Assembly (NCBI RefSeq): GCF_000015585.1
Contig: NC_008789.1
Span: 1-32,000, forward strand
DNA length: 32,000 nt
Direction of reading: 5' to 3'
Source of the DNA: Halorhodospira halophila SL1
Lineage (GTDB): Bacteria; Pseudomonadota; Gammaproteobacteria; Nitrococcales; Halorhodospiraceae
Numbering within the stretch: position 1 is the first letter of the stretch; each line of letters starts with the position of its first letter. Below the pieces are notes generated by a model. It worked only from the letters and a program-made list of their open reading frames with translations, searched no databases and was not told where the DNA came from. Of this stretch, positions 35 to 18,439 are shown piece after piece. The position numbers and the translations under genes are program-made.

Positions 35-664
35 TTAGAGATGGACGGCTGCGCGGCAGGCGACGAGGCAGGCCCGCCCCTGACCCGCGATGGCCGGCAG
101 TTCGTGAACGTCCAGCGCCTCGACGAGCGCCTCCGGGAGCTCCGCCAGCTCCTCTTGGATCCGCTCGCCCTTCAACGCCAGCAGGGCCCCGTCGGGGGCG
201 AGGAGCCCGCGGGTCCCCGGGATCAGTGTGGCCAACGGGGCCACGGCGCGCGCGGTGACCACAGCGAAGTCACCGTCATCCAGGGCCTCCATACGCGCCT
301 GGCGCACCTGAACGCGGTGCAGGCCCAGCTCCGTGGCGCACTGGCGAAGGAAGCGCGTTTTCTTGCCGTTGCTGTCGATCAGGGTCACCGATCGATCGGG
401 CTCAATCAGGGCCAGCACGAGCCCAGGGAAGCCGGCCCCGCTGCCCACATCGGCCAGCGCGCCGGCCGGGAGGTAACGTCGGACGACCAGACTGTCGAGC
501 AGGTGCCGGTCGATGAGCGTCTCGACGTCCCGCGCAGCAGTGAGATTGTACGCGCGATTCCAGCGCATGAGCAGGGACAGAAAGCCCTCGAGGCGCTCCA
601 GGGCCGGGGCGTCGAGTTCAATCTGGAGGTCTTCGAGCCGCGATTCCAGGTACTTACGCGGCAT
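35..664 (-). CDS. rsmG: 16S rRNA (guanine527-N7)-methyltransferase RsmG (GidB)
   Basis: The translation [17 protein letters not shown]...[12 protein letters not shown]...[14 protein letters not shown] shows the typical RsmG SAM-MTase motifs. It lies immediately downstream of mnmG and overlaps it. I prefer the ATG at 664 over the GTG at 670 used by the ORF track. The stop is TAA at 35-37. Confidence 0.9.
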
Positions 665-2555
665 CTTCACCTCCGGTCGGCGTGCGCAGCCAGCCGCGGC
701 GGCGTAGATGAATCAGCAGCAGCGAGATCGCGGCCGGGGTGACTCCGGGCAGGCGGGCCGCCTGCCCCACCGTTGCCGGGCGCATCCGGGTCAGCCGCTC
801 ACGGACCTCGGTGGACAGGCCGTCGATGGCGGCATAGTCAAGCGCTTCGGGGAGGCGGACCTGCGCGTACCGCTGGTGGCGCTGGTTCTCCAACTCCTGG
901 CGTTCCACATACCCGTCGTAGCGGGCCTCGATCTCCAGTTGCTGGACCGCGCGAACCGGGAGGTCGGCCTCCTCCAGGCCACCGATGAAGCGCACGTCAT
1001 CGTAGGAAAGTTCAGGACGGCGCAGCAGGTCGAACAGCGTCTGGTCTCGGCGCAGCGCGCCACCGAGACGGGCCTGCTGGGAGGCCGTCAGCCGGCCCGG
1101 GTGTACCCGCGTGCCGTTAAGACGCGCCCGCTCGGCGTTGAGGGCGTCGCGGTAACGGGCAAAACGCGTCCATTGATCGTCCCCGACCGAGCCCAGGCGG
1201 CGGCCGACCTCGGTCAGGCGGTCCTCGGCGTTGTCGTCGCGTAGGCGCAGCCGATGCTCAGCGCGGCTGGTGAACATGCGGTAGGGCTCGGTGACGCCTG
1301 TGGTGACCAGATCGTCAATCAAGACACCGATGTAGGCCTCCTCGCGGGTGGGGAACCAGGGATCCTCCCCCGCCGACACACGCGCCGCGTTGAGCCCGGC
1401 GATCAGACCCTGGGCGGCGGCCTCCTCATAGCCCGTGGTGCCGTTGATCTGGCCAGCCAGGTAGAGGCCAGCGATGGTGGCGCTCTCGAGCCACGGGGTG
1501 AGTCCCCGGGGATCGAGGTAGTCGTACTCGATCGCGTAGCCGGGACGCGTGATCCGGGCCGCCTCCAGGCCCGGCATACTGCGAATCAGGGCTTCCTGCA
1601 CGGTGAACGGCAAGCCGGTGGAGACTCCGTTGGGATAGAGCTCAGTGGCGTCGAGCCCCTCGGGCTCGAGGAAGACCTGGTGGTGGTCGCGGTCGGCGAA
1701 CCGGACGACCTTGTCCTCGATCGACGGGCAGTACCGGGGGCCCGACGACTGGATCGCGCCGCTGTACATCGGGGAGTGGTCCAGGGCATCGCGGATGATG
1801 CGGTGGGTCTCCGGCGTCGTCCAGCTGATCAGGCAGGCGGCCTCCGGCAGCGGCGCCTCCGGCGGGCGGAAGGGCGAGAAGAGCGGACGCGGGGTGTCGC
1901 CGTGCTGGGCATCGAGCTGCTCGACGGCCACTGTTCGCCGGTCGATGCGCGGCGGGGTGCCCGTCTTGAGACGGTGAACCGCAAGCCCAAGGTCGCGCAG
2001 CGATGCCGACAGGCGATCCGCCGCCGGGTCCCCGGCGCGGCCAGCGCTGTGCTGGACATGCCCGATGTGGATCTGGCCGGCGAGGAAGGTGCCAGCGGTC
2101 ACCACCACCGCATCGGCGTGAAGGGTCGCGCCGCTTTCTGTCCGTACGCCATAACAGCGCTGATCAGCGACCAGCAGCTCCTCGGCGGCGTCCTGGAGCA
2201 GGGCAAGGCCGGGCAAGGCGTCGAGTGCCCGGCGCGCGGCCCGGGCGTAGGTAGGGCGGTCGGCCTGGATGCGGGTGGCACGCACCGCCGGCCCCTTGCG
2301 CTGATTGAGGACCCGGGCGTGGATGGCGGATGCGTCCGCGAGCCGCCCCATCACCCCGCCTAGCGCGTCGATCTCGCGGACCAGGTGCCCCTTGCCAATG
2401 CCGCCGATCGCCGGATTGCAGGAGAGCGCGCCAATGGTCTCGAGGTTGTGCGTGATCAGGAGGGTCGAACGGCCCAGTCGGGCGGCGGCAGCCGCGGCCT
2501 CCGTGCCGGCATGCCCGCCGCCAATGACGATGACATCGAAGCGGTTGGTGTTCAT
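654..2555 (-). CDS. mnmG: tRNA uridine-5-carboxymethylaminomethyl synthesis enzyme MnmG (GidA)
   Basis: An internal ATG at 2555 gives [28 protein letters not shown]...[23 protein letters not shown], the canonical FAD-binding N-terminus of MnmG, and a 633-aa product. The 263 codons upstream of it in the 896-aa track ORF have no MnmG homology and run antisense to fabF. Confidence 0.93.
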
Positions 2556-2645: not shown

Positions 2646-3773
2646 GTGGATGTTCCACGTGGAACTACGGTCCAGTTCGGCGGGACCATCGAAGGGTTCG
2701 ATGTGTCCCAGTACCTGCCGCGCAAAGAGGCGCGGCGGATGGATCCGTTCATCCACTACGCCTTTGGTGCCTGCGCCGAGGCCCTGGATGGGAGCGGCCT
2801 GGAGATCCGCGAGGACAACGCAGACCGGATCGGAGTGGCTATCGGTTCCGGCATCGGCGGGATCCAGGGGATCGAGACCGGGCACCAGGCGCTGATGGAA
2901 GGGGGGGCGCGCAAGGTATCCCCGTTCCTGGTGCCGAGCAGTGTGATCAACATGGCGCCCGGCAATCTGTCCATCCACTACGGGTTGCGGGGGCCCAACC
3001 TGTCGACGGTGACGGCCTGCGCAGCAGGGACCCACAACCTTGGGGTATCCGCCCGGATGATCGCCGCCGGTGACGCCGATGTCATGATCGCGGGTGGGGC
3101 GGAGAAGTGCATCACCCCGCTGGGCCTGGCGGCGTTCTCCTCCGCCCGGGCGCTGTCGACACGCAACGATGACCCGCAGGGCGCGAGTCGGCCCTGGGAC
3201 GTCGATCGCGACGGCTTTGTCCTCAGTGAAGGGGCCGCGGTCGTGGTGCTCGAATCCTACGCTCATGCGCGGAAGCGCGGGGCGACGATCCTCGCCGAGT
3301 TGGTCGGGTTCGGCACCAGTTCGGACGCTTACCACATCACTCAACCGGCGGAGAGCGGGGAGGGGGCGCAGCGCTGTATGGCGCGGGCCCTTGAAGACGC
3401 CGGCATGAATCCTTCAGACATCGACTATATCAACGCCCACGGGACGTCGACCCAGGTCGGCGATGTGGCCGAGGCGGCTGCGGTCAAGCGGCTGTTCGGT
3501 GCGGGCGCCGGCGACGTCGCCATGAGTTCCACCAAGTCGGCAACCGGACATCTGCTGGGTGCCGCGGGGGGTCTCGAGGCCGTATTCAGTGTTTTGGCCC
3601 TGCGTGACGGGATCATCCCGCCGACGTGCAACCTGGCCGAACCCGAAGCGGATTGTGCCGGGCTGGACCTGGTGCCGGGCGAGGCCCGGAAGCAGCCGCT
3701 GCGAGCGGTCCTCAGCAACTCTTTCGGATTCGGCGGGACGAACGCTTCCCTGATCTTCCGCAAGCCGAGCTGA
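2646..3773 (+). pseudogene. fabF: 5'-truncated beta-ketoacyl-ACP synthase II (FabF/KAS II) remnant, or an N-terminally shortened CDS
   Basis: Homology to FabF begins at [13 protein letters not shown]...[14 protein letters not shown] (about nt 2668), which corresponds to E. coli FabF residue ~49 (KFAGLVKDF...RKEQRKMDAFIQYG). The catalytic Cys (VTACAAG) and both His motifs (NAHGTST, TGHLLGAAG) are intact, as is the C-terminus GFGGTNASLIFRK. Roughly 47 N-terminal residues have no room to exist, because the mnmG start is at 2555. The only in-frame starts are TTG 2613, GTG 2646, GTG ~2700 and ATG 2739. Confidence 0.75.
2651..2666. other. parS: parS-like ParB-binding centromere site, copy 2 (TGTTCCACGTGGAACT)
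   Basis: This is the second exact copy of the 18-bp unit GGATGTTCCACGTGGAAC (2648-2665). The first copy is at 2594-2611, 54 bp away start to start. An overlapping partial third core CCACGTGGA sits at 2642-2650. Confidence 0.7.
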
Positions 3774-3786
3774 GAAGTGGGGGGCT

Positions 3787-4653
3787 TTGAGCCGTAAGCA
3801 ACTGGTCAACGGCCGCGCGGATACGGCCCTCGACGCCGAGGATCGCGGCCTCGCCTATGGCGATGGACTGTTCGAGACCGTAGCGGTCAGCCGCGGTCGG
3901 CTATGCCTCTGGGACTACCACATGGATCGGCTCCTAGACGGCGCGCGCCGACTCGGGCTGCCCGAGCCGCCCTTGGCCACCCTGCGGGAAGAGGCCCGTT
4001 TCCTCACCGAGAAGGTGGAGCGGGGCGTACTGAAGGTGGTCTACACCCGCGGCAGCAGTGAGGGTCGTGGCTACCTGCCGCCTGCCAGGCCAATCCCCAC
4101 GCGAATCCTGACACTGCACAATACTCCGGCGATTCCGCCGGAGCGCTGGCAGGGGGTTGATGTCCGGCTCTGTCGGACCCGCATCAGCACGCAACCCCGG
4201 CTGGCCGGCATCAAGCATCTCAATCGCCTGGAGCAGGTGATGGCCCGATCCGAATGGCGGGATGCCGCCATCGCCGAGGGCTTGATGCTCGACGCCGACG
4301 GGCTCATCGTGGAAGGCACAGCGACCAACCTCTTCGGAATCCGCAATCGGGTGCTCATGACGCCCCCTCTCACACATTCAGGCGTGGCCGGTGTGATGCG
4401 GCGCTGGGTCCTGGAGTACGCCGAGACGCTCGGGCTGCGGGTCGAGCAGCGTGGCTTCTACCCGGGCGAGGTGTCCGAGATGGACGAGCTTTTTCTGACC
4501 AACAGCCTGATCGGCCTCTGGCCCGTCCGTTCCGTGGCGGGTACGCAGATACCGGTCGGACCGGTGAGTCAGCGCTATCTCCAGGCAATCGCCGATCATG
4601 GGCTCACCCCGTTGGTTGAGGAGCCGGCGATGCGCGGCGGGGCAGGGCGTTGA
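3787..4653 (+). CDS. pabC: aminodeoxychorismate lyase (class IV PLP aminotransferase fold)
   Basis: The translation shows RGLAYGDGLFETV...YHMDRL... and class IV aminotransferase features. It holds the conserved position between fabF and mltG. The start is TTG. Confidence 0.8.
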   Translation: MSRKQLVNGRADTALDAEDRGLAYGDGLFETVAVSRGRLCLWDYHMDRLLDGARRLGLPEPPLATLREEARFLTEKVERGVLKVVYTRGSSEGRGYLPPARPIPTRILTLHNTPAIPPERWQGVDVRLCRTRISTQPRLAGIKHLNRLEQVMARSEWRDAAIAEGLMLDADGLIVEGTATNLFGIRNRVLMTPPLTHSGVAGVMRRWVLEYAETLGLRVEQRGFYPGEVSEMDELFLTNSLIGLWPVRSVAGTQIPVGPVSQRYLQAIADHGLTPLVEEPAMRGGAGR

Positions 4654-5675
4654 TCGGGCGCGTACCGCGACGACGCTGGTGGGTCGTCGCCGTGGCTCTG
4701 GTGTTTGTTGTGTCGTCGGGAGTCGGCGGATGGCTGTTCTACGAGCTCGATCACCGTCCACTGGAGGTCAGCGCCCCCCCCGAGATCCTCGAGGTCCCCC
4801 GCGGAGGGTCCTTGCACGCCATCTCCCGGGGTCTCGAGTCCCGTGGCTGGATCCCCGGATCGACGCGCCTCGCGTTGCGAATCTACGGTCGCCTCAGCGA
4901 CATCTCGGGTGAGCTCAAGGCCGGCGAGTATGTCGTCGAGCAGGGTATGAGCGTGCGTCAGCTGCTGGCGCGGATCCGTGCCGGGCGGGTCAAGCTGCAC
5001 CGCCTGACCGTCGTCGAGGGTTGGACGTTCGCGCGGCTGCGCCAGGAGCTGGGCCAACACGAGGCCGTGGAGCAGACCCTGGACGGGGTGGAAGACGAGC
5101 AGATCATGGAGGAGCTGGGGCTCGAGGCGTCTCACCCCGAGGGGATGTTTTTCCCGACCACCTACCGCTTTCCGCGTGGCGCGACCGACCGTGATCTGCT
5201 CCGGGTCGCTGCTCGGCAGATGCGCCAGGAGCTGGCGCGGGTGTGGAGCGAGCGCCACCCGGAGGTGCCCCTGGACGAGCCCTACCAGGCGCTGATCCTC
5301 GCCTCGATTATTGAGCGCGAGACCGGGCGCGATGATGAGCGCCGCAAGGTGGCGGGGGTGTTCACCCGGCGCCTGGAGCAGGGTATGCGCCTGCAGACGG
5401 ATCCCACCGTGATCTACGGTCTGGGCGATGACTACGACGGCCGCCTGCGCCGGGCTGACCTGCGACGCGATACGCCCTACAACACGTATACGCGCCACGG
5501 TTTGCCGCCGACCCCGATCGCCCTTCCCGGGCGGGCGTCGTTGGAGGCCGCCGTGGACCCGAAACCGGGTAGTGCGCTGTACTTTGTGTCACGCGGGGAT
5601 GGCAGCCACCACTTCTCGGATACGCTGGACGAGCATAATCAGGCGGTGCGACGCTACATCCTGGAGGAGAAGTGA
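4650..5675 (+). CDS. mltG: endolytic murein transglycosylase MltG (YceG family)
   Basis: It has an N-terminal TM helix (WWVVAVALVFVVSSGVGGW) and the YceG motifs LKAGEY, LASIIERET and YNTYTRHGLPPTPIALPG. The TTG start overlaps the pabC stop (TTGA). Confidence 0.88.
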   Translation: MIGRVPRRRWWVVAVALVFVVSSGVGGWLFYELDHRPLEVSAPPEILEVPRGGSLHAISRGLESRGWIPGSTRLALRIYGRLSDISGELKAGEYVVEQGMSVRQLLARIRAGRVKLHRLTVVEGWTFARLRQELGQHEAVEQTLDGVEDEQIMEELGLEASHPEGMFFPTTYRFPRGATDRDLLRVAARQMRQELARVWSERHPEVPLDEPYQALILASIIERETGRDDERRKVAGVFTRRLEQGMRLQTDPTVIYGLGDDYDGRLRRADLRRDTPYNTYTRHGLPPTPIALPGRASLEAAVDPKPGSALYFVSRGDGSHHFSDTLDEHNQAVRRYILEEK

Positions 5676-6319
5676 CCGAGCGAGGGTGTTTCATCACGGT
5701 GGAGGGGCTGGAAGGGGCTGGTAAGACCACCTGTCTACAGGCTATCGAGCAGATGCTGCTTGAGGCCGGCATCGACCGCCCCCTGTTTACCCGGGAGCCT
5801 GGCGGAACCCCGTTCGGGGAAGCGCTGCGCGGCGCGCTCTTGGATCCGCAGTACCGCGGCCTGACGGCAGAGGCCGAGGCGTTGACCGTGTTCGCGGCCC
5901 GTGCCGAACATCTGGCGCAAGTCATCCGGCCCACGCTGGATGCCGGACGCTGGGTGATCAGTGATCGCTTCACGGATGCTACCTATGCTTATCAGGGGGG
6001 TGGCCGTGGCCTTGGCGATGAACGGATTGCTGTGCTGGAGCGCTGGGTTCACGGTGGGTTCACGCCGGACCGCACGCTCCTGCTGGACGTGGACCCCACG
6101 GTGGGGCGGTCACGGGTCGCCCACCGAGGCGACGGAGAAGACCGCTTTGAGCAGGAGCGGGATCCCTTCTTCCAAGCCGCGCGCGCCGCTTACGCCCGAC
6201 GCGCCGCAGCAGATCCCGAGCGCTTCCGCTGCATCGACGCCAACCGGCCCGAGGGCGAGGTGGCGGAACAGGTACGTGCCGGAGTGGCCGATCTCTTGCC
6301 GGTGGGTGGACGACCGTGA
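5672..6319 (+). CDS. tmk: thymidylate kinase
   Basis: The translation starts FITVEGLEGAGKTT (P-loop) and contains DRFTDATYAYQG. The GTG start overlaps the mltG stop (GTGA), with a GGAGGAG RBS at 5663-5669. Confidence 0.92.
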   Translation: MTERGCFITVEGLEGAGKTTCLQAIEQMLLEAGIDRPLFTREPGGTPFGEALRGALLDPQYRGLTAEAEALTVFAARAEHLAQVIRPTLDAGRWVISDRFTDATYAYQGGGRGLGDERIAVLERWVHGGFTPDRTLLLDVDPTVGRSRVAHRGDGEDRFEQERDPFFQAARAAYARRAAADPERFRCIDANRPEGEVAEQVRAGVADLLPVGGRP

Positions 6320-7371
6320 GCGAGGCCGCCCATCTCTCGGACTGGATCACGCCCCGGGACGGGCGGGAGCAACTCCCGCCGTGGCTGCTGCCGGAGCTGG
6401 ACCGGTTGCTCACCCTCCACGATCAGGGCCGGCTCCATCACGCGCTGTTGCTGACGGGTCGCACCGGCCTTGGCAAACGGCTCCTGGCGGGCGTCCTGGC
6501 CCGGGCGCTGCTCTGTCAGGCGGACGAGGGGGGCGGGGCGCGGCCCTGCGGTCAGTGCCGGGGTTGCCATCTGACCGGCGGGGGTTCCCACCCCGATTTG
6601 CGCACGCTGAGTCCGAGTAGCCGCGGCGAGCGCGGTGAGATCGTGGTCGACAGCGTGCGTGGGCTGGTCGATTTCCTGCATCTGAGCGCGCAACGGGGGG
6701 GGAGTCGGGTGGCGGTGATCGTTCCTTGTGATCGCCTCAACCGCGCCGCCGCCAACAGCCTGCTCAAAACCCTGGAGGAGCCACCTCCGGGCGTCTTCCT
6801 GATCTTGGCCACCGGTCGGCCCGGACGGCTGCCGCCGACCGTACGAAGCCGATGCACCGTACGTGGCCTGACGCCGCCGGCCTGGGACGCAGCGCGGCGG
6901 TGGCTGGCCGAGCGCGCGGGCGGGGCCGAGGGCCGGGTCGACAAGGCGCTCGCGCTGGCCGGCGGCATGCCGCTGACTGCCGAGCAGATCCTCCATGAGC
7001 AGGGGCTGGAGGGATACGAGTCGCTGCTCCAGCAGCTGCACCGCCTCAGCGCCGGAGGAGACCCGGTCAAGGAGGCCGAGGCCTGGGAGGGGGCGCCGGA
7101 GGCACTGGCCGACGCCGTTACAGCGATCCTGGCGGATCTACTGCGTCAACGCCACGGGGCGCCGGATCGCGGACTACTGCCGTCGCCGCTGGCACAGCAG
7201 CTGGTCCGCGAAGCCTCGGTGGAGGCGCTCCACCAGGCGTTCTTGCGTATCGGCGAGCATCGGCGCGGCCTCGAGCAGCCTCTGAATGGCCGTCTGGCCG
7301 CCGAGGCGATCTTCCTCGACCTGGCCGCCGCCTTGCGGCCCGCTCGTCAATCCGCCGCCAGACAGGCGTGA
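6316..7371 (+). CDS. holB: DNA polymerase III subunit delta-prime
   Basis: Motifs are HALLLTGRTGLGKRLLA, the zinc-module-like CGQCRGCH and the SRC motif (VRSRC). The GTG start overlaps the tmk stop. It holds the conserved position after tmk. Confidence 0.88.
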   Translation: MSEAAHLSDWITPRDGREQLPPWLLPELDRLLTLHDQGRLHHALLLTGRTGLGKRLLAGVLARALLCQADEGGGARPCGQCRGCHLTGGGSHPDLRTLSPSSRGERGEIVVDSVRGLVDFLHLSAQRGGSRVAVIVPCDRLNRAAANSLLKTLEEPPPGVFLILATGRPGRLPPTVRSRCTVRGLTPPAWDAARRWLAERAGGAEGRVDKALALAGGMPLTAEQILHEQGLEGYESLLQQLHRLSAGGDPVKEAEAWEGAPEALADAVTAILADLLRQRHGAPDRGLLPSPLAQQLVREASVEALHQAFLRIGEHRRGLEQPLNGRLAAEAIFLDLAAALRPARQSAARQA

Positions 7372-8477
7372 AGCCGCCGCCAGGCTTCCTCCAGGTCCTC
7401 GGCTGTGTTGTAAAAATGTGGCGAGAAGCGGATCCCGCCGCAGCGCGAGGCACACGCCACGTCACGGGCACGCAGCGCCGCCAGGAGACGCTCCGGATCC
7501 GCTCCCGGTACGCGGAAGGTCACGATGCCGGCGTGCCGTTGCGGCTCCGACGGTGTAACCAGCTCAAAGCCGTGGCGCTGGACTCCCTCCATGGCGTGCC
7601 GGGCGTTTTCCAGGACGCGCCGCTCGACCTCGTCCAGGCCGACCTCTTCTAGGACGGCCAAGCTGGCCTCGAGGGCGTGGGAACCGAGCAGATTGGGGCT
7701 ACCCGGCTCCAGGCAGCGACCGTTGCCGGCCGGATCCCAGCCAGGGCGGTCGAATGCGCCGAGCTCGTCGGCCATGTGCCAACCGATCTGCCAGAGCCTT
7801 AACTTGTCGCGCACCCGCGGGTGGACGTACAGACCGCCAATGCCTTCCGGACCAAGCATCCACTTGTGGCCATCGGCGACGATAAAGTCGGCATCCACCG
7901 ACAGCCTCAGCGCCCCCAGGGTCTGGATGGCATCGACGCACAGCAGGATGCCGCGTTCGCGGCAGGCGGTGCTCAGGCGCTCCAGATCCATGCGCAGCCC
8001 GGTGCCGTACTGGACGCTGCTCACCGGCAACAGTCGGGTTCGCGGTGTCAGGGCGTCGATCAGGGCGTCTTCGGGCGTGGCGCCGTCACTCAGTCGGACC
8101 TGGCGAACGTGGACACCGTAGTGCTCGGCGAGCGACTGCCAGACCCAGCGATTGGAGGGAAATTCCTGGTCGTTGATGACCACCTCATCCCCGGGGTGCC
8201 ACGTGACCCCATGCGCAACCATCGACAGGCCCGCTGAGGTGTTGGGAACCAGGGCGATGTCCTCCGCTGCGGCGTCACCGACCCCCATCAGTCGGGCGAG
8301 CCGGGCACGCAGCCGGTCTTCGGCCTCAAGCCATTGGGGGTAGTCCGCGGCGCCCCGGTGCAGGCACTCATCCGCGAACCGATGGACGGCATCCCGCGTT
8401 CGCTGCGGCCAGGTGCCGACGCCAGCGTGGTTGAGGTAGACCAGGTTTGGGTCCAACGGGAACTCTGGGTGGGCCAT
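7347..8477 (-). CDS. class V PLP-dependent aminotransferase / cysteine desulfurase-like enzyme
   Basis: The translation shows VYLNHAGVGTWP, VPNTSAGL and a PLP-lysine context ADGHKWMLGPEGIGGLYV. The specific substrate cannot be assigned from sequence alone. Confidence 0.8.
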   Translation of the reverse strand: MAHPEFPLDPNLVYLNHAGVGTWPQRTRDAVHRFADECLHRGAADYPQWLEAEDRLRARLARLMGVGDAAAEDIALVPNTSAGLSMVAHGVTWHPGDEVVINDQEFPSNRWVWQSLAEHYGVHVRQVRLSDGATPEDALIDALTPRTRLLPVSSVQYGTGLRMDLERLSTACRERGILLCVDAIQTLGALRLSVDADFIVADGHKWMLGPEGIGGLYVHPRVRDKLRLWQIGWHMADELGAFDRPGWDPAGNGRCLEPGSPNLLGSHALEASLAVLEEVGLDEVERRVLENARHAMEGVQRHGFELVTPSEPQRHAGIVTFRVPGADPERLLAALRARDVACASRCGGIRFSPHFYNTAEDLEEAWRRLHACLAAD

Positions 8478-8583
8478 CGCCGTTGCCTTTGTGGTTGCAG
8501 CGGTGAACGACCGAGTATACCGAGCCGTTGGCGGGTTGTCGGCAAGCCCGCCGGCCGCAGCCGCCGTGTCGCCGGCACGCCTG

Positions 8584-8611
8584 GGGCCGTGGAAGGTATA
8601 TTATGTTAAAT
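8584..8611 (+). other. dif: dif-like XerC/XerD recombination site (GGGCCGTGGAA GGTATA TTATGTTAAAT)
   Basis: The XerD arm TTATGTTAAAT (8601-8611) matches E. coli dif 11/11. The central hexamer GGTATA matches TGTATA 5/6. The XerC arm GGGCCGTGGAA matches GGTGCGCATAA only 6/11. It is the only strongly AT-rich island in a 234-bp intergenic region of a GC-rich window. Confidence 0.6.
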
Positions 8612-8711
8612 AGCCCGCGACCCCAAGAGAAGGAAGGCCGGCCGTGGTCCCTGACTCAGTGGTCGGATGCGCCCTGTCCGGCGCCCTACCCACCCCGAGA
8701 GCTTTTACGCC

Positions 8712-9485
8712 TCAGACTTGCCGTGTCTCCCGCCATCGCTGGGCGTGCTCCTCGTCAGCGATATTCCACTCGTGCTCGATGAACTGTTTATCTCCGGTCT
8801 CCAGCAACGCCCACAGGATGAAGTCGGCAGCGTCCTCGGGGCTGTGAAGCTGACCGTTCTGCTTAAGCTTGATGAAGCGATCCACGGCCGGGAAGCGCTC
8901 CGGGGTCTGGGTCCGGATGTGATCCTGCATGGGGGTATCCACCACGCCCGGGCGAACCGAGCCGACCAGGATCCCCTCGCGCCATAACTCTTCGCGGTAG
9001 ATCTGGTAGACCATGAACAGCGCAGCCTTGCTGGTGCAGTACGCACCCCAGCCCATGGACGGCTTGTGCGCCGCTCCCGACGAGATATGCAGGATTCGGC
9101 TTCCCGGCTCCATGAGTGGCAGCAGCCCCTGGCTGAGGAAGACCGGCGCTTCCACGTTAACCGCCATGGCTTTCCGCCAGGCGTCGAGGTCCACGTCCTT
9201 GAGCGGTCCCACCGGATCGAGAAGACCGGCATTGTGGATGACCGCGCGCACCGTGTAGCCCTGCGCGGCCTCGATGATGTGTCCGCGCTCGTCAGCATGG
9301 GCGATATCCGCGCTGAGTGTGCGAATCCGGTCTGAATCGGCGGTGGCGGTTTCGGCGAGCGCCTCAGGGCGTCGCCCGACCGTGAGCACCTGGGCTCCGT
9401 CCCGGGCAAGCCCGCGCACCAGTGCCCTGCCCAGGCCGCTACCACCACCGGTCACGACCACCAGTTCGTTCTCATGCCACCTCAT
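8712..9485 (-). CDS. short-chain dehydrogenase/reductase (SDR) family oxidoreductase
   Basis: It has the cofactor motif VVVTGGGSGLGRA and the catalytic YCTSKAAL (YxxxK). I prefer the ATG at 9485 because AAGGAG lies 5 nt upstream; the track GTG at 9500 sits inside that RBS context. Confidence 0.85.
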   Translation of the reverse strand: MRWHENELVVVTGGGSGLGRALVRGLARDGAQVLTVGRRPEALAETATADSDRIRTLSADIAHADERGHIIEAAQGYTVRAVIHNAGLLDPVGPLKDVDLDAWRKAMAVNVEAPVFLSQGLLPLMEPGSRILHISSGAAHKPSMGWGAYCTSKAALFMVYQIYREELWREGILVGSVRPGVVDTPMQDHIRTQTPERFPAVDRFIKLKQNGQLHSPEDAADFILWALLETGDKQFIEHEWNIADEEHAQRWRETRQV

Positions 9486-9577
9486 GTTGCGCTCCTTCAC
9501 TCAACGATCGGCCTGCTCACCGCGATGGCACGCCTGACTTCAATTCGATTCAGTGAACAGTGTAACGAGTCAGACAA

Positions 9578-10555
9578 TCACAGGTCGCTGTCCGGACCAA
9601 TGATCCGATTCGGCGGCACTCCCCCCGTTGCAAACGCCACCAGATTATCGCGCAGCTGCTCGACAATGCGGCGTCGCGCCTCCAGCGCCGACCAAGCGCT
9701 GTGCGGTGTGACGGTAACGTTCGGTAGATCCGCGGCCAGTAGCGGGTGGTCCGGCGGGGGGGGTTCCTGTGTCAGGACGTCGAGCGCGGCCGCCCCGATC
9801 TCTTCGTTCCGCAGTGCCGTGGCGAGCGCCGACTCATCCACCAATCCCCCCCGGGCGGTGTTGACCAGCAGTGCATCGCTGCGCATTCGCCGCAGCGCCC
9901 CGGCGTCGATCATCCCGGCTGTCTCCTCCGTCAGCGGGCAATGCAGGCTCAGCACGTCCACTTCCGGCAGCAACTCGTCAAACGGGACCCGGCCCACCCG
10001 GCAGCGATGGGCCGAGGGCCGCTCGGCCAGCCATACCTCCATGCCGAGGGCTTGCGCAAACGCCGCAACCCGCTGCCCCAGAGTGCCGTAACCGACAACC
10101 CCCAGGCGCCGACCGGCAATCTCGCGCTGGGCGGGATCGATCAGGCTAAAGTGCGGCGCCCGGCTCCACTCCCCGTCCCGAACCCGGGCGGTGAACGCCG
10201 GGATGCGTGTGAAATGGTTCAGGACCAGAGTGAGCGTATGCTGAGCGACGGCCGTGGTGCCGTAATCCTGGCAGTTGGTGACCGTGATGCCCCGCCGCCG
10301 GGCGGCTTCCAGGTCCACGTTGTTGGTGCCCGTAGCCGCAACGGCGATCAGCCGCAGCTTCGGCAAGCAGCTGAGGATCCCGGCGTCGAGGACGACCTTG
10401 TTGACGATGGCCGCCTCTGCCGGCTCGAGTCTAGGGAGCAACGCCTCGGGACGGGTTCGGGGGTAGCACTCAAGGGGGTCAGCCGCCTGTTGCAGCGGCG
10501 TCAGATCCAGGTCACCGGGGTCCAGGGACCCCGCGTCGAGGAAGACGGTATGCAT
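9578..10555 (-). CDS. D-isomer-specific 2-hydroxyacid dehydrogenase (glycerate dehydrogenase / hydroxypyruvate reductase-like)
   Basis: The translation shows LRLIAVAATGTNNVDLEAARRRGITV, the NAD motif GVVGYGTLGQRVA and TPHSAW near the C-terminus. Confidence 0.85.
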   Translation of the reverse strand: MHTVFLDAGSLDPGDLDLTPLQQAADPLECYPRTRPEALLPRLEPAEAAIVNKVVLDAGILSCLPKLRLIAVAATGTNNVDLEAARRRGITVTNCQDYGTTAVAQHTLTLVLNHFTRIPAFTARVRDGEWSRAPHFSLIDPAQREIAGRRLGVVGYGTLGQRVAAFAQALGMEVWLAERPSAHRCRVGRVPFDELLPEVDVLSLHCPLTEETAGMIDAGALRRMRSDALLVNTARGGLVDESALATALRNEEIGAAALDVLTQEPPPPDHPLLAADLPNVTVTPHSAWSALEARRRIVEQLRDNLVAFATGGVPPNRIIGPDSDL

Positions 10556-10657
10556 AGCGTGGAATCGGTCCCGGTCAGAACACCACCTGACGAGCGGTTG
10601 CGCGCCAGCCTGTTCGCTATTCTATGACCTTTCAGCCCGTGAAACAGGAGGCAACTG

Positions 10658-11284
10658 ATGATGCCGCAAGGCAGTGGCACCGGCCCGTCCCCTTCCTCGG
10701 ACGCCCTGAATCAGGCGGCACGGCTGCCTGCCCCCCTACCGGTCATTGCGGTCACTGGCTACTCGGGGGCCGGCAAAACAACCCTGCTGACCGGTCTGGT
10801 TACCCAGATGCGCAGCGCCGGCTGGTCCCCTGCGGTGGTCAAACATGCTCACCACGGATTTGATATGGACCGCCCCGGTAAGGACAGCTACCGGGTGCGG
10901 GAAGCCGGTGCCGAGCAGGTTCTGGTGGTTTCCGCTCAGCGCTGGGCCCTGCTGACGGAGACTCCGACTGAGGAGCATGATGACGACCTGCTGGTGACCA
11001 GGCTGCGCGCCATCGACCCGACTCGAGCCGACGTCATACTCGCCGAAGGCTTCCGCCACAGTGGCGCGGGGCAATTGCTGGTCCATAGCCAACGCACCGG
11101 AGTCGAGCGTCCCGACTTCCAGGCGCCGGGCGTACTTGGCGTGGCCACCGACGACCCCGAAGCTGTGCCGCCTGGCCTCCCCTGCCTCGATCTCGATGAT
11201 CACGCTGGCCTGGCCGCCTTCGTTGAGCGTTGCATCCACGGCATTATAAGCCGTGCTCGCGGGAACCAGGCGGGCGAGTATTAA
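10658..11284 (+). CDS. mobB: molybdopterin-guanine dinucleotide biosynthesis adapter protein MobB
   Basis: Motifs are VIAVTGYSGAGKTTLL (P-loop) and VVKHAHHGFDMDRPGKDSYR. An AGGAGG RBS lies at 10646-10651. The protein carries an N-terminal extension of about 28 aa relative to typical MobB. Confidence 0.85.
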   Translation: MMPQGSGTGPSPSSDALNQAARLPAPLPVIAVTGYSGAGKTTLLTGLVTQMRSAGWSPAVVKHAHHGFDMDRPGKDSYRVREAGAEQVLVVSAQRWALLTETPTEEHDDDLLVTRLRAIDPTRADVILAEGFRHSGAGQLLVHSQRTGVERPDFQAPGVLGVATDDPEAVPPGLPCLDLDDHAGLAAFVERCIHGIISRARGNQAGEY

Positions 11285-11434
11285 CAAGAAAAATCAGGAG
11301 GTTAAAAGACCTTTCGCCCTTCCCTGCGGGCGGCCCCGGGGTTACATTGATCGACGCGGCACCCCGTTGTGGGTGAGCCGATAACAATCACAACACCCCG
11401 GGGACGGTGACAACCTCAAGCAGGGAGGGGACCC

Positions 11435-13339
11435 ATGAGCTACCAGGAGACTTATTGGGAGTCGATCAACGATCCGGAGGCGTTCTGGCTACGTGAGGCG
11501 CAGCTGCTGCAGTGGATCGCTGAGCCTCCTGCCGCCCTGAGCCTGGATGAGCAGGGTCGGCAGCGGTGGTTCCGTGGGGGGCGCCTGAACGTCTCCCAGC
11601 TGGCCCTGGATGCCCATGTCGAGGCCGGTCGGGGCGAACAGCCTGCCCTCCTCTACGACTCCCCGGTGAGTGGTTCCCGCGAGCAATACACCTACCGGCA
11701 GCTGCTGGACGAGGTGTCCCGAGCCGCGGGGATGCTGCGCGATCTCGGTGTCGGGCATGGCGACCGGGTCGTTATCTATATGCCCATGATCCCCGAGGCG
11801 GTCATCGCCATGCTCGCCTGCGCGCGGCTGGGTGCCATCCACTCGGTGGTCTTCGGTGGTTTCGCCGCCAACGAACTGGCGGTACGGATCGATGACGCCA
11901 ACCCCCGGGTTGTCCTGACGGCGAGCTGTGGGATCGAAGTCGATCGGGTCATCCCCTATCAACCACTGGTCGATGAGGCCCTACGCCGCGCGGAACACAA
12001 GCCAGCGCGGGTCGTTTACGTCAGCCGGCCTCAGGCCCAGGTGGCGTGGGACGAAAATCGGGATCTGGACTGGCACACGCAGCTGGCGCAGTCGGCCCCG
12101 GCAGAGCCGGTGGCCGTGGATGCCACGGATCCCCTCTACATCCTCTACACCTCCGGGACGACCGGAAAACCCAAGGGGGTGGTCCGGGATAGCGGCGGAT
12201 ACGCCGTGGCACTGAATTGGAGCCTCGGGGCGATCTACGACCTCCACCCCGGCGACGTTTTCTGGACCGCCTCGGATGTCGGCTGGGTCGTCGGCCACTC
12301 CTACATTGTCTACGGCCCCCTGATTCGCGGCTGCACGACCGTCGTCTACGAAGGCAAGCCGGTGCGGACCCCGGATGCCGGCGCGTTTTGGCGCGTGATC
12401 TCGGAGTATCGCGCAAAGGCGTTCTTCACCGCCCCCACCGCCTTTCGGGCAATCAAGAAGGAAGACCCCGAGGCACGCCACCTGCAGGACTACGATCTCT
12501 CCTGCCTGGAGAATGTCTTTGTCGCCGGTGAGCGGCTGGATCCCCCCACCTACGAGTGGCTTTCGCAAACCCTGCAACGGCCCGTGATCGATCACTGGTG
12601 GCAGACGGAGACGGGTTGGCCCATCGTTGCGAACCCGATGGGCATCGAGCCCCTGCCCATCAAGAGTGGCTCGGCCACCGTGCCCATGGCCGGCTACGAC
12701 ATCCGCGTGCTCGACGATTCCGGCCGCGAGCTCCCCGCCGGCGAGCAGGGCAACCTGGCCATCCGGCTCCCGCTGCCGCCCGGCTGTCTGCCAACCCTCT
12801 GGAATGATGAGGCCCGCTTCCGGAAGTCCTACCTGGAGCGTTTCCCTGGGTTCTACGACACCTCGGACGGCGGATTGATCGATGAGGATGGTTACGTCTA
12901 CGTGATGGGCCGGGTGGACGATGTGATCAACGTCGCCGGCCATCGCCTCTCCACCGGGGAGATGGAGGAGGTCATCGGTGATCACTCGGCGGTGGCGGAA
13001 TGCGCCGTGGTTGGCATCCACGACGACACCAAGGGTGAGCTGCCAGTGGCCTTCGTGGTGCTCAAAGACGGGACCGACATCGATCAGGAACGAATCGAGG
13101 AGGATCTGGTAGCCATGATCCGTAACGAGATCGGGGCCATCGCCTCCCTTCGCCGCGTCGCCGTGGTTCAGAAGTTGCCCAAGACCCGTTCCGGGAAGAT
13201 CCTGCGCAAAAGCATCCGGACACTGGCGAAGGAGGCGCGGGAACAGGTCCCCACCCCGTCGACCATCGACGACGCCTCCAGCCTTGACGAGATCGCTGAT
13301 GCGATTCAGACCTACAACCTGGGGCGCTACGCCTCCTGA
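11435..13339 (+). CDS. prpE: propionate--CoA ligase (acyl-CoA synthetase, PrpE-like)
   Basis: The match is collinear with PrpE throughout: YMPMIPEAVIAMLACARLGAIHSVVFGGFA, IDDANP, YTSGTTGKPKGV, GGYAVAL, DVGWVVGHSYIVYGPL, LPKTRSGKILR and the C-terminal TIDDASSLDEI. Confidence 0.85.
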   Translation: MSYQETYWESINDPEAFWLREAQLLQWIAEPPAALSLDEQGRQRWFRGGRLNVSQLALDAHVEAGRGEQPALLYDSPVSGSREQYTYRQLLDEVSRAAGMLRDLGVGHGDRVVIYMPMIPEAVIAMLACARLGAIHSVVFGGFAANELAVRIDDANPRVVLTASCGIEVDRVIPYQPLVDEALRRAEHKPARVVYVSRPQAQVAWDENRDLDWHTQLAQSAPAEPVAVDATDPLYILYTSGTTGKPKGVVRDSGGYAVALNWSLGAIYDLHPGDVFWTASDVGWVVGHSYIVYGPLIRGCTTVVYEGKPVRTPDAGAFWRVISEYRAKAFFTAPTAFRAIKKEDPEARHLQDYDLSCLENVFVAGERLDPPTYEWLSQTLQRPVIDHWWQTETGWPIVANPMGIEPLPIKSGSATVPMAGYDIRVLDDSGRELPAGEQGNLAIRLPLPPGCLPTLWNDEARFRKSYLERFPGFYDTSDGGLIDEDGYVYVMGRVDDVINVAGHRLSTGEMEEVIGDHSAVAECAVVGIHDDTKGELPVAFVVLKDGTDIDQERIEEDLVAMIRNEIGAIASLRRVAVVQKLPKTRSGKILRKSIRTLAKEAREQVPTPSTIDDASSLDEIADAIQTYNLGRYAS

Positions 13340-13348
13340 CCCGGCCAC

Positions 13349-13376
13349 CCGGGCGCAGCGCGAGTGCTGCGTCCGG
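13349..13376. terminator. GC-rich hairpin between convergent prpE and mtfA (possible bidirectional terminator)
   Basis: It forms an 11-bp stem (CCGGGCGCAGC / GCTGCGTCCGG, with one G-U pair) and a 6-nt loop. There is no clear U-tract. Confidence 0.35.
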
Positions 13377-13399
13377 TTACCATGCGCCCCCCCCTCCCG

Positions 13400-14158
13400 C
13401 TAGCCCAGAGACCAGCCGTAGAACCGCGCTAGCTGCCGGTAGACCTCCGGAAAGGCCCGTCGAAGCCGGTGCGGATCGGCGAAGAACGTCTCCGTGGCCA
13501 CCGCGAAGAACTCACCAGGGTCTTGCCCGGCGTAGGGGTCGAGCGGAGTTACGGCGCACGCTCCCTCGGCCGCGTAGGCCTCCATGGTGTGAAAAGCGGG
13601 CAGGAACGCCGCCGACCAGTCATCAACGGTCATCCCGCGTGGCAGGGGGGGCAGACCGTTGACTGCTCCTTGCCCCATATCGAGCTTATGGGCGCACTCA
13701 TGGATGACGACGCTGCTCCCCGGCTCCGGTGCCAGGGCATCTTCCAGGGAGAGTACCAGCGGCCCGCCCTCCCACGCCTCGCCAATCAGGGGGCCCTGCT
13801 CGACGTGAACGACCCCGTCCTCGTCCTCATACTCGTGGGTGGCCACGAAACCGGCTGGATAAAGGAGAATGGTCGTCCAGGGCGCATACCAATCCACGCC
13901 CAATTCAAGCACCGGCACCGCCGCCTGAAGCGCCACGGTATCGACCGCCAAGGCATCGAGGGTAACCCCGGCCACGCCCTCGAAGCGCTTTTCGTGGATC
14001 AGCGCAGTCGCCGCAGCAGCCAACCGTTGCCGTGTACCGGGGGGCAGTCGGCGCAAGCCTGGCAGCGCTGCCTCGGCACGGCTCCAGGCGGCGGGCGAAA
14101 GCCGGTAGCGCTGCGCTATACGCTGACGCCGCCAGTTACGCAGCCATCCCACGTGCAC
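13400..14158 (-). CDS. mtfA: MtfA-like zinc-dependent peptidase (M90 family, Mlc titration factor A homologue)
   Basis: The match is collinear with E. coli MtfA: VPVLELGVDWY, the HExxH motif IHECAHKLD and DPYAGQDPGEFFAVATETFFADP. Confidence 0.82.
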   Translation of the reverse strand: MHVGWLRNWRRQRIAQRYRLSPAAWSRAEAALPGLRRLPPGTRQRLAAAATALIHEKRFEGVAGVTLDALAVDTVALQAAVPVLELGVDWYAPWTTILLYPAGFVATHEYEDEDGVVHVEQGPLIGEAWEGGPLVLSLEDALAPEPGSSVVIHECAHKLDMGQGAVNGLPPLPRGMTVDDWSAAFLPAFHTMEAYAAEGACAVTPLDPYAGQDPGEFFAVATETFFADPHRLRRAFPEVYRQLARFYGWSLG

Positions 14159-14224
14159 GCCTCCCTTGGGGTCCGGGTCTCGCCTGAGTCATAATCCACG
14201 GCCGTTGCCACTGGAAGACCGATC

Positions 14225-15424
14225 ATGCCAGAAACCACCCCCAGCGGTCCGCGCAAGCACATCACCGTCAACGGCACCGAGTTCGTGCTCCTGGGTACGG
14301 CGCACATCTCCCAGGCCAGTACCGAAGAGGTCCAGCGTGAGGTGGCCAGTGGCGCCTACGATGCGGTCGCCATCGAACTGTGCGAGAGCCGTCTGCGCGC
14401 CTTCCGCGAGCCCGATCATCTGGAGCGGATGGACCTGTTCCAGACCCTGCGTGACGGACGCGGGGGACTGGTCATGGCCAGTCTCGCGCTGGGCGCCTAT
14501 CAGCAGCGCCTAGCGGAGCAACTCGGGGTCGATCCCGGGGCGGAGATGAAGGCGGCCGCGGCCGGGGCGGAGCAGTATGGGGCCGATCTGGTGCTGGTTG
14601 ACCGTGAGGTCGGGGTCACCATGCGCCGCCTCTACCGCAATGTGCCCTGGTGGCAACGCTTCGGGCTCATCGGCGGACTGATCGGCAGCCTCGCCTCTTC
14701 CCAGCGGATCAGCAGCGAGGAAGTGGAGCGGCTTAAGCAAGGCGACCTGTTGGAGTCGACCTTTCGCGAGCTGGCCCAGAGCAGTCGAGCCCTGTACCAG
14801 CCGCTGATCGATGAGCGCGATCGGTACATGGCTGCCAGGCTCCTGGAGTCCGCCGCCGGGCGCTACAAGCGTGTCCTCGTCGTCCTCGGGGCCGGGCACC
14901 TGGAGGGGGTGACGCGCTATCTGGGGCAGGCCTCGGCGGATCCCGGCGCCGAGCGCGAGGCGCTGGACCGTATGCCGCCCCCGGCACGCTGGCCACGTTA
15001 CCTGGCCTATCTGGTCGCCATCGTGATCATCTCCGGCTTCGTCATCGGGTTCAGCCGCAGTCCGGAACTGGGCTGGACCCTGGTCGCCACTTGGGTGCTG
15101 ATCAACGGTGGCTTCTCGGCCCTGGGCGCCGCCCTCGCCTACGGCCACCCGGTCACCGTTGCCGGGGCCTTCCTGGCCGCCCCCCTGACATCGCTCAACC
15201 CGACCATCGGCGCCGGGTTTGTCGCAGCAGCGATCGAGCTGACCGTCCGGAGACCGCGGGTCGGCGACTTCCGCGCCCTGCGCCAGCACGTGGCGCACTG
15301 GCGCGGCTGGTGGACCAACCGAGTGGCCCGAACCCTGCTAGTGTTCTTCTTCGCCTCGCTCGGTTCGGCCGTTGGCACCTATCTCGCCGGCGCACGCATC
15401 ATTGAGCGCCTGATTGCCGCCTAG
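14225..15424 (+). CDS. TraB/GumN family protein
   Basis: The N-terminal motif is ITVNGTEFVLLGTAHISQASTEEV...YDAVAIELCESR, followed by LVVLGAGHLEG. The C-terminal part is hydrophobic and multi-TM. Confidence 0.8.
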   Translation: MPETTPSGPRKHITVNGTEFVLLGTAHISQASTEEVQREVASGAYDAVAIELCESRLRAFREPDHLERMDLFQTLRDGRGGLVMASLALGAYQQRLAEQLGVDPGAEMKAAAAGAEQYGADLVLVDREVGVTMRRLYRNVPWWQRFGLIGGLIGSLASSQRISSEEVERLKQGDLLESTFRELAQSSRALYQPLIDERDRYMAARLLESAAGRYKRVLVVLGAGHLEGVTRYLGQASADPGAEREALDRMPPPARWPRYLAYLVAIVIISGFVIGFSRSPELGWTLVATWVLINGGFSALGAALAYGHPVTVAGAFLAAPLTSLNPTIGAGFVAAAIELTVRRPRVGDFRALRQHVAHWRGWWTNRVARTLLVFFFASLGSAVGTYLAGARIIERLIAA

Positions 15425-15438
15425 ACGGTCGGCGACGG

Positions 15439-16992
15439 TTACCGGTCTCGGGTAGCCAGGAAGCGGATGTCTGGCCAGCGCTCCTGGGTGAGTTCGAGGT
15501 TGGCGCGGGTGGGGGCCAGATAGGCGAGCGCCCCGGTCCCATCCCAGGCCAGTGCCGACTCGTTGCGGTCACGGAAACGCTGCAGCGCCTTCTCGTCTTC
15601 GGCACTGACCCAACGGGCCGTATAGACCTGGACCCCTTCAAAGGTGCACTCGACCCCGTACTCCTTCTGTAGCCGGTAGGCGGCCACGTCGAACTGAAGA
15701 GTCCCGACGGCACCGACAATCCAGTCGGAGCCGAGCAGCGGCCGGAAGAGCTGGGTGGCTCCCTCTTCACACAGTTGCTCAAGTCCCTTCTGTAACGCCT
15801 TCATCCGCATCGGATCACGAAGCACAACCCGGCGGAATAGCTCCGGGGCAAAGTCGGGGATGCCGGTGAAGTGTAACGACTCGCCCTCGGTGAAGGCATC
15901 GCCGATGATGATGGTGCCATGGTTGTGGATGCCAATGATGTCGCCAGGGGCTGCCGTCTCGGCATGGGAGCGGTCGCTGGCCATGAAGGTGGTGGCACGC
16001 GGGATCTTCATGTTCTTGCCGGTGCGCACCTGATAGAGCTTCATGCCGGGTTCAAAACGCCCTGAACAGACTCGCAGGAACGCAATGCGATCGCGGTGTT
16101 GAGGATCCATGTTGGCCTGGATCTTGAAGACGAACCCGGTGAAGTTCTCCTCGTCGGCGCGGACCTCACGGCCGGCATCCCGGCTGCGCGGCGCCGGCGC
16201 GTGCTCGACGAAGTCATCGAGCAGCTCGCGGATGCCGAAGTCATTGACGGCCGAACCGAAGTAGACTGGGGTCAGCTGACCAGCCAGATAGGCCTCTGGA
16301 TCGAACGAATCACTGGCTTCCCGGACCAGCTCGATCTGCTCGCGCCATTCGTCCACCTCCCCCGGGAAAAGCTCATCGAGCCGCGGGTTGTCCAGCCCCT
16401 GGATGATCTCGCGGTCCATAAACAGGCGCACCTGGTCGAGGTGGAGGTGGTAGACCCCGCGGAAACCGCGCCCCATGCCTAAGGGCCAGGTGACGGGGGC
16501 GCAGCGGATGCGCAGCACCGACTCGACCTCATCGAGGACCTCCACGGGGTCGCGGCCGTCCCGATCAAGCTTGTTGATGAACGTGGTGATCGGGGTATCT
16601 CGCATCCGGCAGACATCCATCAACTGCACGGTGCGCTCCTCCACGCCCTTGGCGATATCGATGACCATCAGGGCGGAGTCGACAGCCGTCAGCGTACGAT
16701 AGGTATCCTCCGAGAAGTCGCCGTGGCCGGGCGTATCGAGCAGATTCAGGATGCGTTCACGGTAGGGGAACTGCATCACCGAGGAGGTCACCGAGATCCC
16801 CCGCTCTTGTTCCATGGCCATCCAGTCTGAAGTGGCGTGGGCTTTGGATTTCCTTCCCTTGACCGACCCCGCCATCTGGATCGCACCTCCGTAATAGAGG
16901 AGCTTCTCGGTGAGGGTGGTCTTGCCGGCGTCGGGGTGCGAGATGATCGCGAAGGTCCGTCTCTTCGCTGCTTCGGTGGCCACGTCTTGCAT
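15439..16992 (-). CDS. prfC: peptide chain release factor 3
   Basis: It has [21 protein letters not shown] (G1), [16 protein letters not shown] (G3) and INKLDR (G4), and is collinear with PrfC over 517 aa. Confidence 0.93.
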
Positions 16993-17213
16993 CGGTTCTC
17001 CTAGCCGGGGTGAATGATGACGGCGTCAAACCGTATGATTTTACCCGATGCCGCTCGGGTACGTCCTCTTCCCCAGGAGGATCTGTGCCCGCAGACGGGA
17101 ACCTGAGCGGCGCTGCCGATGTCGCATCAGGCAGCGCGTCGGGATCGGGCGGCCGGGTCGGCTGCCCTGCGTCGGCGAATGAATCCTGCGAAGTTGCAAG
17201 AGGAGTCCTCAGC

Positions 17214-17708: not shown

Positions 17709-17737
17709 CGCCCCCCCCTGTGCACGGGAGCGCTCCC

Positions 17738-17764
17738 CCCGGCCCTGCGGGCCGGGTTTTTTTT
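17738..17764 (+). terminator. rho-independent terminator
   Basis: The 8-bp GC stem CCCGGCCC / GGGCCGGG has a 3-nt loop and is followed by T8. It lies 30 nt after the stop of the DUF4168 gene. Confidence 0.8.
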
Positions 17765-17876
17765 GCCCGGGTGCGGCAGCCGGTGCGTGGCTAGTTCAAA
17801 CGGGAGTGTGTAGGATATCGGCCGCACCGGCGCATGCCGCCCTCTCTATCGATGCTGAACTCTTGAAGAAGGTCGC

Positions 17877-18401: not shown

Positions 18402-18439
18402 GATCAGGCGCGGACGCCAGGAGTGACAGGAGGACTATC

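Follow-up and report, generated by a model that had tools for sequence, protein, structure and literature searches.

We analysed the first 32,000 nucleotides of contig NC_008789.1 of Halorhodospira halophila SL1 (hereafter, the window) and located in it a 28-bp sequence, GGGCCGTGGAAGGTATATTATGTTAAAT, that is very probably the chromosomal dif of this species, the site at which chromosome dimers are resolved; we put the probability of this reading at about 0.85. The sequence lies at positions 8584–8611 of the plus strand and has the 11-6-11 layout of a complete dif site. It consists of a predicted XerC-binding arm, GGGCCGTGGAA (8584–8594), a central hexamer, GGTATA (8595–8600), as the putative 6-bp strand-exchange region, and a predicted XerD-binding arm, TTATGTTAAAT (8601–8611). 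Genes for a short-chain dehydrogenase/reductase (SDR) and a class-V aminotransferase enclose the site. Because the same SDR/aminotransferase slot holds dif-like 28-mers in relatives, with a canonical dif in Halorhodospira halochloris, we regard the H. halophila 28-mer as the likely orthologue of a canonical dif. An earlier note on this DNA had already proposed a candidate dif here. The proposal gains support from the same-slot dif of H. halochloris, from a graded series of XerC arms, from an invariant XerD arm and from converging motifs that resemble the FtsK-orienting polar sequences (KOPS).

The right-hand 19 nt of the site agree with the Escherichia coli dif at 18 of 19 positions. The XerD arm is identical to that of both E. 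coli and Alkalilimnicola ehrlichii (11/11), and the centre differs from TGTATA of E. coli by one base. The XerC arm matches its E. coli counterpart, GGTGCGCATAA, at 6 of 11 positions, C5, G6, A10 and A11 being kept. The centre and the XerD arm together form a contiguous AT-rich 17-mer, and the GC content of the site is 39%, compared with 62–72% (about 66%) for the window. A 15-nt AT-rich core, TATATTATGTTAAAT, has a single match in the window at up to three mismatches; its chance expectation there is 0.02 (dinucleotide-preserving shuffles). Scored against the A. ehrlichii dif by a simple match count over 26 positions, the 28-mer reaches 20/26; the best background score in 0.3 million positions of Halorhodospira-lineage DNA was 16/26. 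Neither a second dif-like site nor a canonical XerC arm was found anywhere in the 32-kb window, in which the 28-mer is unique. On recount, the position and strand given in the earlier note, its match counts for the 19-mer and the two arms, and its judgement that the AT-rich right part is unlikely to have arisen by chance were all correct.

We fetched orthologous loci from relatives through homologues of the flanking aminotransferase, the dif motif being unused in the selection (loci L046, L047, L055, L056 and L057). Halorhodospira sp. 9622 (91% amino acid identity of the aminotransferase) carries GAGCCGCGGAA GGTATA TTATGTTAAAT in the same slot, a Halorhodospira metagenome-assembled genome (MAG; 76%) carries GTGTCGCGGAA GATATA TTATGTTAAAT, and the lineage represented by L056 and L057 (72%) carries ACTTCGTGGAA GATATA TTATGTTAAAT. 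In H. halochloris strain 9851 (64%), AGTTCGCATAA GGTATA TTATGTTAAAT stands between the orthologous SDR and aminotransferase genes, and this 28-mer, AGTTCGCATAAGGTATATTATGTTAAAT, has the fully canonical form of a gammaproteobacterial dif. Scanning genomes and metagenomes for the motif added further lineages with a site in the same slot: L034/L059 with the arm GAGCCGTGGAA, L010/L062 with GGTTCGCGGAA, and L065 with GATTCGCGGAA and the centre GATATA. Among the high-GC hits of these scans, XerC arms ending in GGAA were confined to the SDR/aminotransferase slot (L034/L059, L010/L062, L065 and L066). The GGTATA centre is not peculiar to these bacteria; the genome scan found it between canonical arms in about 30 species.

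The XerD arm was identical in every orthologous locus, including the five retrieved without the motif. Pairwise identity was 100% for the XerD arm, 93% for the centre and 78% for the XerC arm, compared with ~33% for the 60-bp flanks. Three of the six sequences in this calculation had been ascertained by the 19-mer, but the comparisons free of motif selection (the window, L046, L047, L055 and L056/L057) gave the same pattern. In relatives, conservation spans exactly 28 bp, and the flanks diverge immediately beyond this block. Because the arms and centre are conserved while the flanks cannot be aligned, purifying selection acts on the 28 bp alone. The site thus combines the layout, the conserved XerD arm, the non-coding location of low GC content and the positional orthology expected of a dif, in agreement with the general description of dif sites as non-coding, low in G+C and provided with a highly conserved XerD site (Carnoy & Roten 2009).

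The XerC arm is the unusual part of the site. Arranged by relatedness from H. halochloris to the window, the arms read AGTTCGCATAA, ACTTCGTGGAA, GATTCGCGGAA, GGTTCGCGGAA, GTGTCGCGGAA, GAGCCGCGGAA, GAGCCGTGGAA and GGGCCGTGGAA. In the seven lineages of the H. halophila clade they grade from TTCGCGGAA to GCCGTGGAA. Positions C5, G6, A10 and A11 are constant throughout the series, and positions 8–9 are GG in all seven clade lineages (canonical AT). The clade pattern for the whole site is NNKYCGYGGAAGRTATATTATGTTAAAT. The earlier note had left open whether the odd half-site was lineage-specific or degenerate. The first option is favoured, with GGAA kept in seven lineages, and the second is not, the derived arm itself being conserved. 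Because the derived GGAA is conserved across the clade, we read the XerC arm as a conserved clade-specific variant, NNKYCGYGGAA, and not as a decaying half-site. We infer that this variant is still in use, whether a co-adapted XerC binds it or XerC is loaded cooperatively beside XerD, because the derived state is fixed across the clade.

A more specific proposal, for which we see somewhat less than an even chance, is that the XerC half was recoded in the H. halophila clade (inner AT to GG, outer TT to GC), abolishing the dyad symmetry of the site, and has stayed fixed since. At the same locus, the canonical XerC arm persists in H. halochloris. If the proposal is correct, either the DNA-recognition residues of XerC co-evolved within one bacterial family, or dif is assembled in a strongly asymmetric manner, XerC being loaded mainly through cooperativity with XerD. 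The two types of arm would then provide a natural matched pair for studying how XerC recognizes its arm.

The polarity of the flanking DNA was examined with the octamer GGGNAGGG as a KOPS-like motif. For the left flank we used the arrangement of H. halophila strain 9630, because the join at 2667/2668 of the window, described below, could be an inversion or a chimera. Left of the site, two octamers lie on the plus strand and point at the site (3357–3364 and 4640–4647), and one opposes them on the minus strand (5521–5528). To the right, between 8684 and 26972, there are nine, starting at 8684, 9425, 11317, 12651, 20611, 21185, 24284, 25149 and 26965; all are on the minus strand and thus point at the site. 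In total, 11 of 12 octamers converge on it, with two of three on the plus strand to the left and a plus:minus ratio of 0:9 to the right. Scrambled G-rich control octamers of the same composition split 99:198 right of the site, and the 0:9 split differs from these controls at p=0.034 and from an expectation of 0.5 at p=0.004. The same convention of plus on the left and minus on the right, with the site oriented from the XerC to the XerD arm, was found at canonical dif loci of other Gammaproteobacteria. Over the ~35 kb covered, the convergence expected of a dif is therefore present if GGGNAGGG is taken as the FtsK motif.

GC skew was +0.06 over the 11 kb left of the site and −0.008 over the 23 kb to its right. 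The earlier note had named the lack of a skew inflection near the site as part of what would refute its proposal; locally, the rise stops at ~7.3–8.6 kb, but what follows is a plateau. The change-point and skew signals over 35 kb are dominated by gene strand, and they do not place the switch uniquely. The skew of the window is compatible with a dif at 8584–8611 and is not decisive.

Several observations weigh against the assignment. The XerC arm departs from the proteobacterial consensus NNTNCGCATAA and lacks its inner palindrome (6/11). The dyad symmetry of the site is down to 2 bp, only A10 and A11 pairing with T18 and T19. Palindromicity is among the usual dif criteria, and conservation in dif is normally strongest in the inner portions of the two arms (Carnoy & Roten 2009). 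A scan of the GTDB species representatives with the 19-mer gave no Halorhodospira match. Neither the window nor any fetched locus showed xerC, xerD or ftsK, the xerC/xerD search of the fetched loci being a tblastn search with E. coli query sequences. The excess of convergent octamers over the G-rich controls is modest (p=0.034), and the role of GGGNAGGG as FtsK motif in Halorhodospira is assumed and was viewed over ~35 kb. Cumulative G−C forms a plateau from ~7.3 to ~25 kb without a sharp peak, and generic G-rich octamers give nearly equal change-points at ~22.2 kb and ~7.3–8.2 kb. Finally, a different dif has been published for strain SL1: Kono et al. (2011, Additional file 2) placed it at 2,598,940 with the sequence GCTGCGCATAACCTCGGTTCTATAAACT.

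We gave the GTDB result no weight against the site, since DNA obtained by other routes shows it in strains 9630 and 9622, in the MAGs and in H. halochloris; masking or the choice of representative may account for the missing match. As to the recombinases, there is indirect evidence that XerC and XerD are present in H. halophila, because SL1 is listed in the table of Kono et al. (2011), who took in only genomes with KEGG XerCD orthologues.

The published prediction bears on the alternative that survives best, although we consider it improbable: that the site is a relic or pseudo-dif in which the XerD arm and centre survive beside a decayed XerC arm, the working dif being elsewhere, for example at the site of Kono et al. 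A XerC arm with a 6/11 match and a lost inner palindrome would suit a relic, and the published site combines a canonical XerC arm with a position 0.6 degrees from the GC-skew shift point of its authors. Decay, however, would not leave an identical stretch of 17 nt and a fixed GGAA in seven lineages whose flanks are ~33% identical, and the same slot is occupied by a canonical dif in H. halochloris. The published sequence, which is absent from the 32-kb window, also scores 17/26 against the A. ehrlichii dif: its XerC arm is good, its centre matches at 1 of 6 positions and its XerD arm at 7 of 11. Roughly ten matches at this level are expected by chance per genome. Because background DNA reaches 16/26 within 0.3 million positions, the published site is, to judge by its score, a chance-level consensus match at genome scale. 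Candidates below threshold underwent a manual check for a palindrome at positions 7–12 and 17–22 (Kono et al. 2011), a step that would penalize the real site and may explain why a non-palindromic sequence was passed over. The support from position is likewise weakened, because the origin and terminus shift points of SL1 are only about 6–7 degrees apart in their table, so that proximity to either means little. Such closeness suggests that the SL1 record has an anomalous skew profile. In our judgement, the site at 8584–8611 supersedes the published prediction.

The relatives differ in what lies beside the site. In strain 9622, a half-site echo directly follows the XerD arm (TTATGTTAAAT and then TATGTTAGAC; L046, 9876–9913), and an extra cytochrome b gene (PF01292; L046, 9241–9807) separates dif from the SDR gene. 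The L056/L057 lineage shares this extra gene (L057, 3039–3605), whereas the window lacks it, which suggests that a gene was gained or lost beside the XerD arm of dif. Outside this group, a 28-mer of Psychrobacter lutiphocae with a poor XerC arm, GGAGGACAGAA, has an inverted second XerD arm, ATTTAACATAA, 9 nt to its left (L028, 2873–2920); this arrangement resembles paired Xer sites or a scar left by integrative mobile elements exploiting Xer (IMEX).

An IMEX might also be held responsible for the H. halophila site, which would then be a hybrid junction (attL or attR) with its XerC arm contributed by a XerCD-integrated element and its XerD arm by the chromosome. One good arm next to an odd one does recall IMEX junctions, and the echo and extra gene of strain 9622, both on the XerD-arm side, could be taken in the same sense. 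The element, however, would have to lie left of the site, where the aminotransferase, holB, tmk, mltG, pabC and fabF form a run of housekeeping genes that is syntenic in all relatives; on the right, too, the neighbours are housekeeping genes with synteny across relatives. No partner site was found in the 32 kb, either with the 15-mer at three mismatches or with a canonical XerC arm, a scan of viral contigs for GTGGAAGGTATATTATGTTAAAT gave 0 matches, and a plasmid search with positions 8000–9200 gave none. Moreover, the XerC arm shifts gradually along the host phylogeny and not in one step. We therefore consider an IMEX junction very unlikely.

Hardly any weight falls on the remaining alternative, that the AT-rich block is a promoter or other regulatory element of the aminotransferase gene and its likeness to dif coincidental: the block does precede the start codon by 106 bp and is intergenic, and AT-richness is usual for promoters in such a region, but a 17/17 match to centre and XerD arm is expected by chance far less than once per genome, the conserved block has the exact 28-bp extent and 11-6-11 layout of dif, the slot is filled by a full canonical dif in H. 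halochloris, and the gene, which Spiribacter, Nitrococcus and H. abdelmalekii keep without the element, does not need it.

The linkage of dif to an aminotransferase gene appears to be old. In a gammaproteobacterial MAG of the SAR169 group, a canonical dif (L008, 1311–1338) lies 50 bp from a homologue with 46% identity (1388–2473), and a class-V aminotransferase gene is also found 50 bp from the dif of Nitrosococcus oceani (Carnoy & Roten 2009, Table S1). No dif was found near the aminotransferase gene in the orthologous loci of Spiribacter halobius, Nitrococcus mobilis and H. abdelmalekii, and the linkage is therefore not universal. The H. abdelmalekii locus (L050) has no dif within 21 kb, and its synteny is broken, with the aminotransferase gene co-stranded with holB and a gene for a TonB-dependent receptor inserted. 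An IS605-family TnpB/TnpA pair (L050, 13762–15441) is located 2.6 kb from the aminotransferase gene.

In the window, the site sits in a 234-bp non-coding gap (8478–8711). The aminotransferase gene (7347–8477, minus strand; PF00266) is the conserved left neighbour. The right neighbour is the SDR gene (8712–9485 or 9500, minus strand; PF00106), which is called at 257 amino acids in strain 9630 and whose stop codon lies 100 bp from the site. Further left follow holB, tmk, mltG, pabC and a truncated fabF. The genes on the right side include those for a 2-hydroxyacid dehydrogenase, an acyl-CoA synthetase and a TraB/GumN-family protein, as well as mobB, mtfA, prfC, fabA, fabB, hemN, pgsA, uvrC, fumC and purB, among others. 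All genes of the window are housekeeping genes, and no integrase, phage or plasmid genes were found in its 32 kb.

The left end of the window is unusual. Positions 2668–18477 are 100% identical to contig NRRO01000003.1 of strain 9630 (GCA_016583685.1), in which the aminotransferase is also identical to that of SL1 (ABM60803.1). Positions 1–2667, which contain rsmG (35–670, minus strand), mnmG (654–2555, minus strand) and the region upstream of mnmG, are 100% identical to another contig of the same strain, NRRO01000008.1. There, the equivalent sequence continues into mnmE-yidC-rnpA-rpmH/dnaA-dnaN-recF-gyrB, the replication origin region, and the order of the origin-region contig is dnaA-rpmH...mnmE-mnmG-rsmG-parAB-atp. 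At 2667/2668 of the window, DNA of the origin region is thus joined to codon ~47 of fabF, the first ~46 codons of which are gone; strain 9630 and every relative examined have an intact fabF with acpP in front of it. On comparison of the sequences, the join would fit a replichore-scale inversion and a chimeric join in the source assembly equally well. On either reading, genes from near the origin come to lie 6 kb from dif, and a GC-skew plot of the record would be distorted. An independent short-read contig of the Logan assembly of SRR9436781 (L003), which differs from strain 9630 by 1 nt, ends inside an intact fabF at the equivalent of window position 2633, 35 nt left of the breakpoint; its end may mark a branch of the assembly graph at the breakpoint.

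Just upstream of mnmG, the window contains two exact copies of GATGTTCCACGTGGAAC (2595–2611 and 2649–2665), 54 bp apart, the second of which ends 2 bp before the breakpoint. The repeat includes a perfect 14-bp palindrome, GTTCCACGTGGAAC, and both copies are also present in strain 9630. The pair looks like a putative paired operator for a regulator.

A mechanism can be proposed by analogy with the XerCD/FtsK system of E. coli. On the right, TTATGTTAAAT would be bound by XerD, and on the left, GGGCCGTGGAA by XerC. With the converging polar KOPS-like motifs as its guide, FtsK at the septum would bring the two sister dif sites of a chromosome dimer together and activate XerD, which would carry out the first strand exchange over the 6 bp of GGTATA. 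XerC would then resolve the Holliday junction to yield monomers. We infer the binding of the arms, the order of catalysis and the dependence on FtsK from this analogy only.

Circular bacterial chromosomes normally carry a dif, and finding one in H. halophila was to be expected. The present site provides a well-supported candidate that would replace the published prediction for SL1, and it would mark the terminus in a genome record with an anomalous-looking arrangement nearby. The graded series from a canonical to a GGAA-type XerC arm, at one orthologous locus and inside a single family, could be useful for studies of XerC–DNA specificity, and it could improve dif-finding models that over-weight palindromicity.

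Several classes of Xer sites are available for comparison. The plasmid XerCD sites cer (GGTGCGTACAA...) and psi (GGTGCGCGCAA...) illustrate that E. coli XerC tolerates changes at positions 7–9 of its arm, cer having T7 and psi having G8 and C9. The Halorhodospira XerC arm varies at the same positions. cer and psi are, however, plasmid-borne and FtsK-independent, and they need ~180 bp of accessory sequence together with ArgR/PepA or ArcA, whereas the Halorhodospira site is chromosomal, lies among housekeeping genes and has no plasmid match. By its context and the absence of a plasmid match to positions 8000–9200, it is unlike a site of plasmid multimer resolution of the cer/psi type.

IMEX attachment sites, such as those of CTXphi, TLCphi, the Xanthomonas phages Cf and Lf and the gonococcal genetic island (GGI), are also XerCD substrates of 28 bp with one arm unlike that of the host dif. 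As a rule, their XerC arm is preserved and their XerD arm and centre are degraded, and element genes and a second site adjoin them. The Halorhodospira site is the opposite, with an intact XerD arm and a divergent XerC arm, and has neither element genes nor a partner in the 32 kb; the remark in the earlier note that its arm pattern is the reverse of that of IMEX sites therefore stands. The SL1 site of Kono et al. (2011) was likewise proposed as the dif of H. halophila, but differs in sequence and locus.

The closest likeness is to the gammaproteobacterial dif sites of E. coli (GGTGCGCATAA-TGTATA-TTATGTTAAAT), A. ehrlichii (ACTGCGCATAATGTATATTATGTTAAAT) and H. halochloris (AGTTCGCATAAGGTATATTATGTTAAAT). 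With these the H. halophila site shares the 11-6-11 layout, the identical XerD arm, the intergenic position, the low GC content, the single copy in the window and the convergence of KOPS-like motifs. It differs from them in its XerC arm, which reads NNKYCGYGGAA in place of NNTNCGCATAA, with GG in place of AT at positions 8–9, and in its dyad symmetry with the XerD arm, which is reduced to 2 bp.

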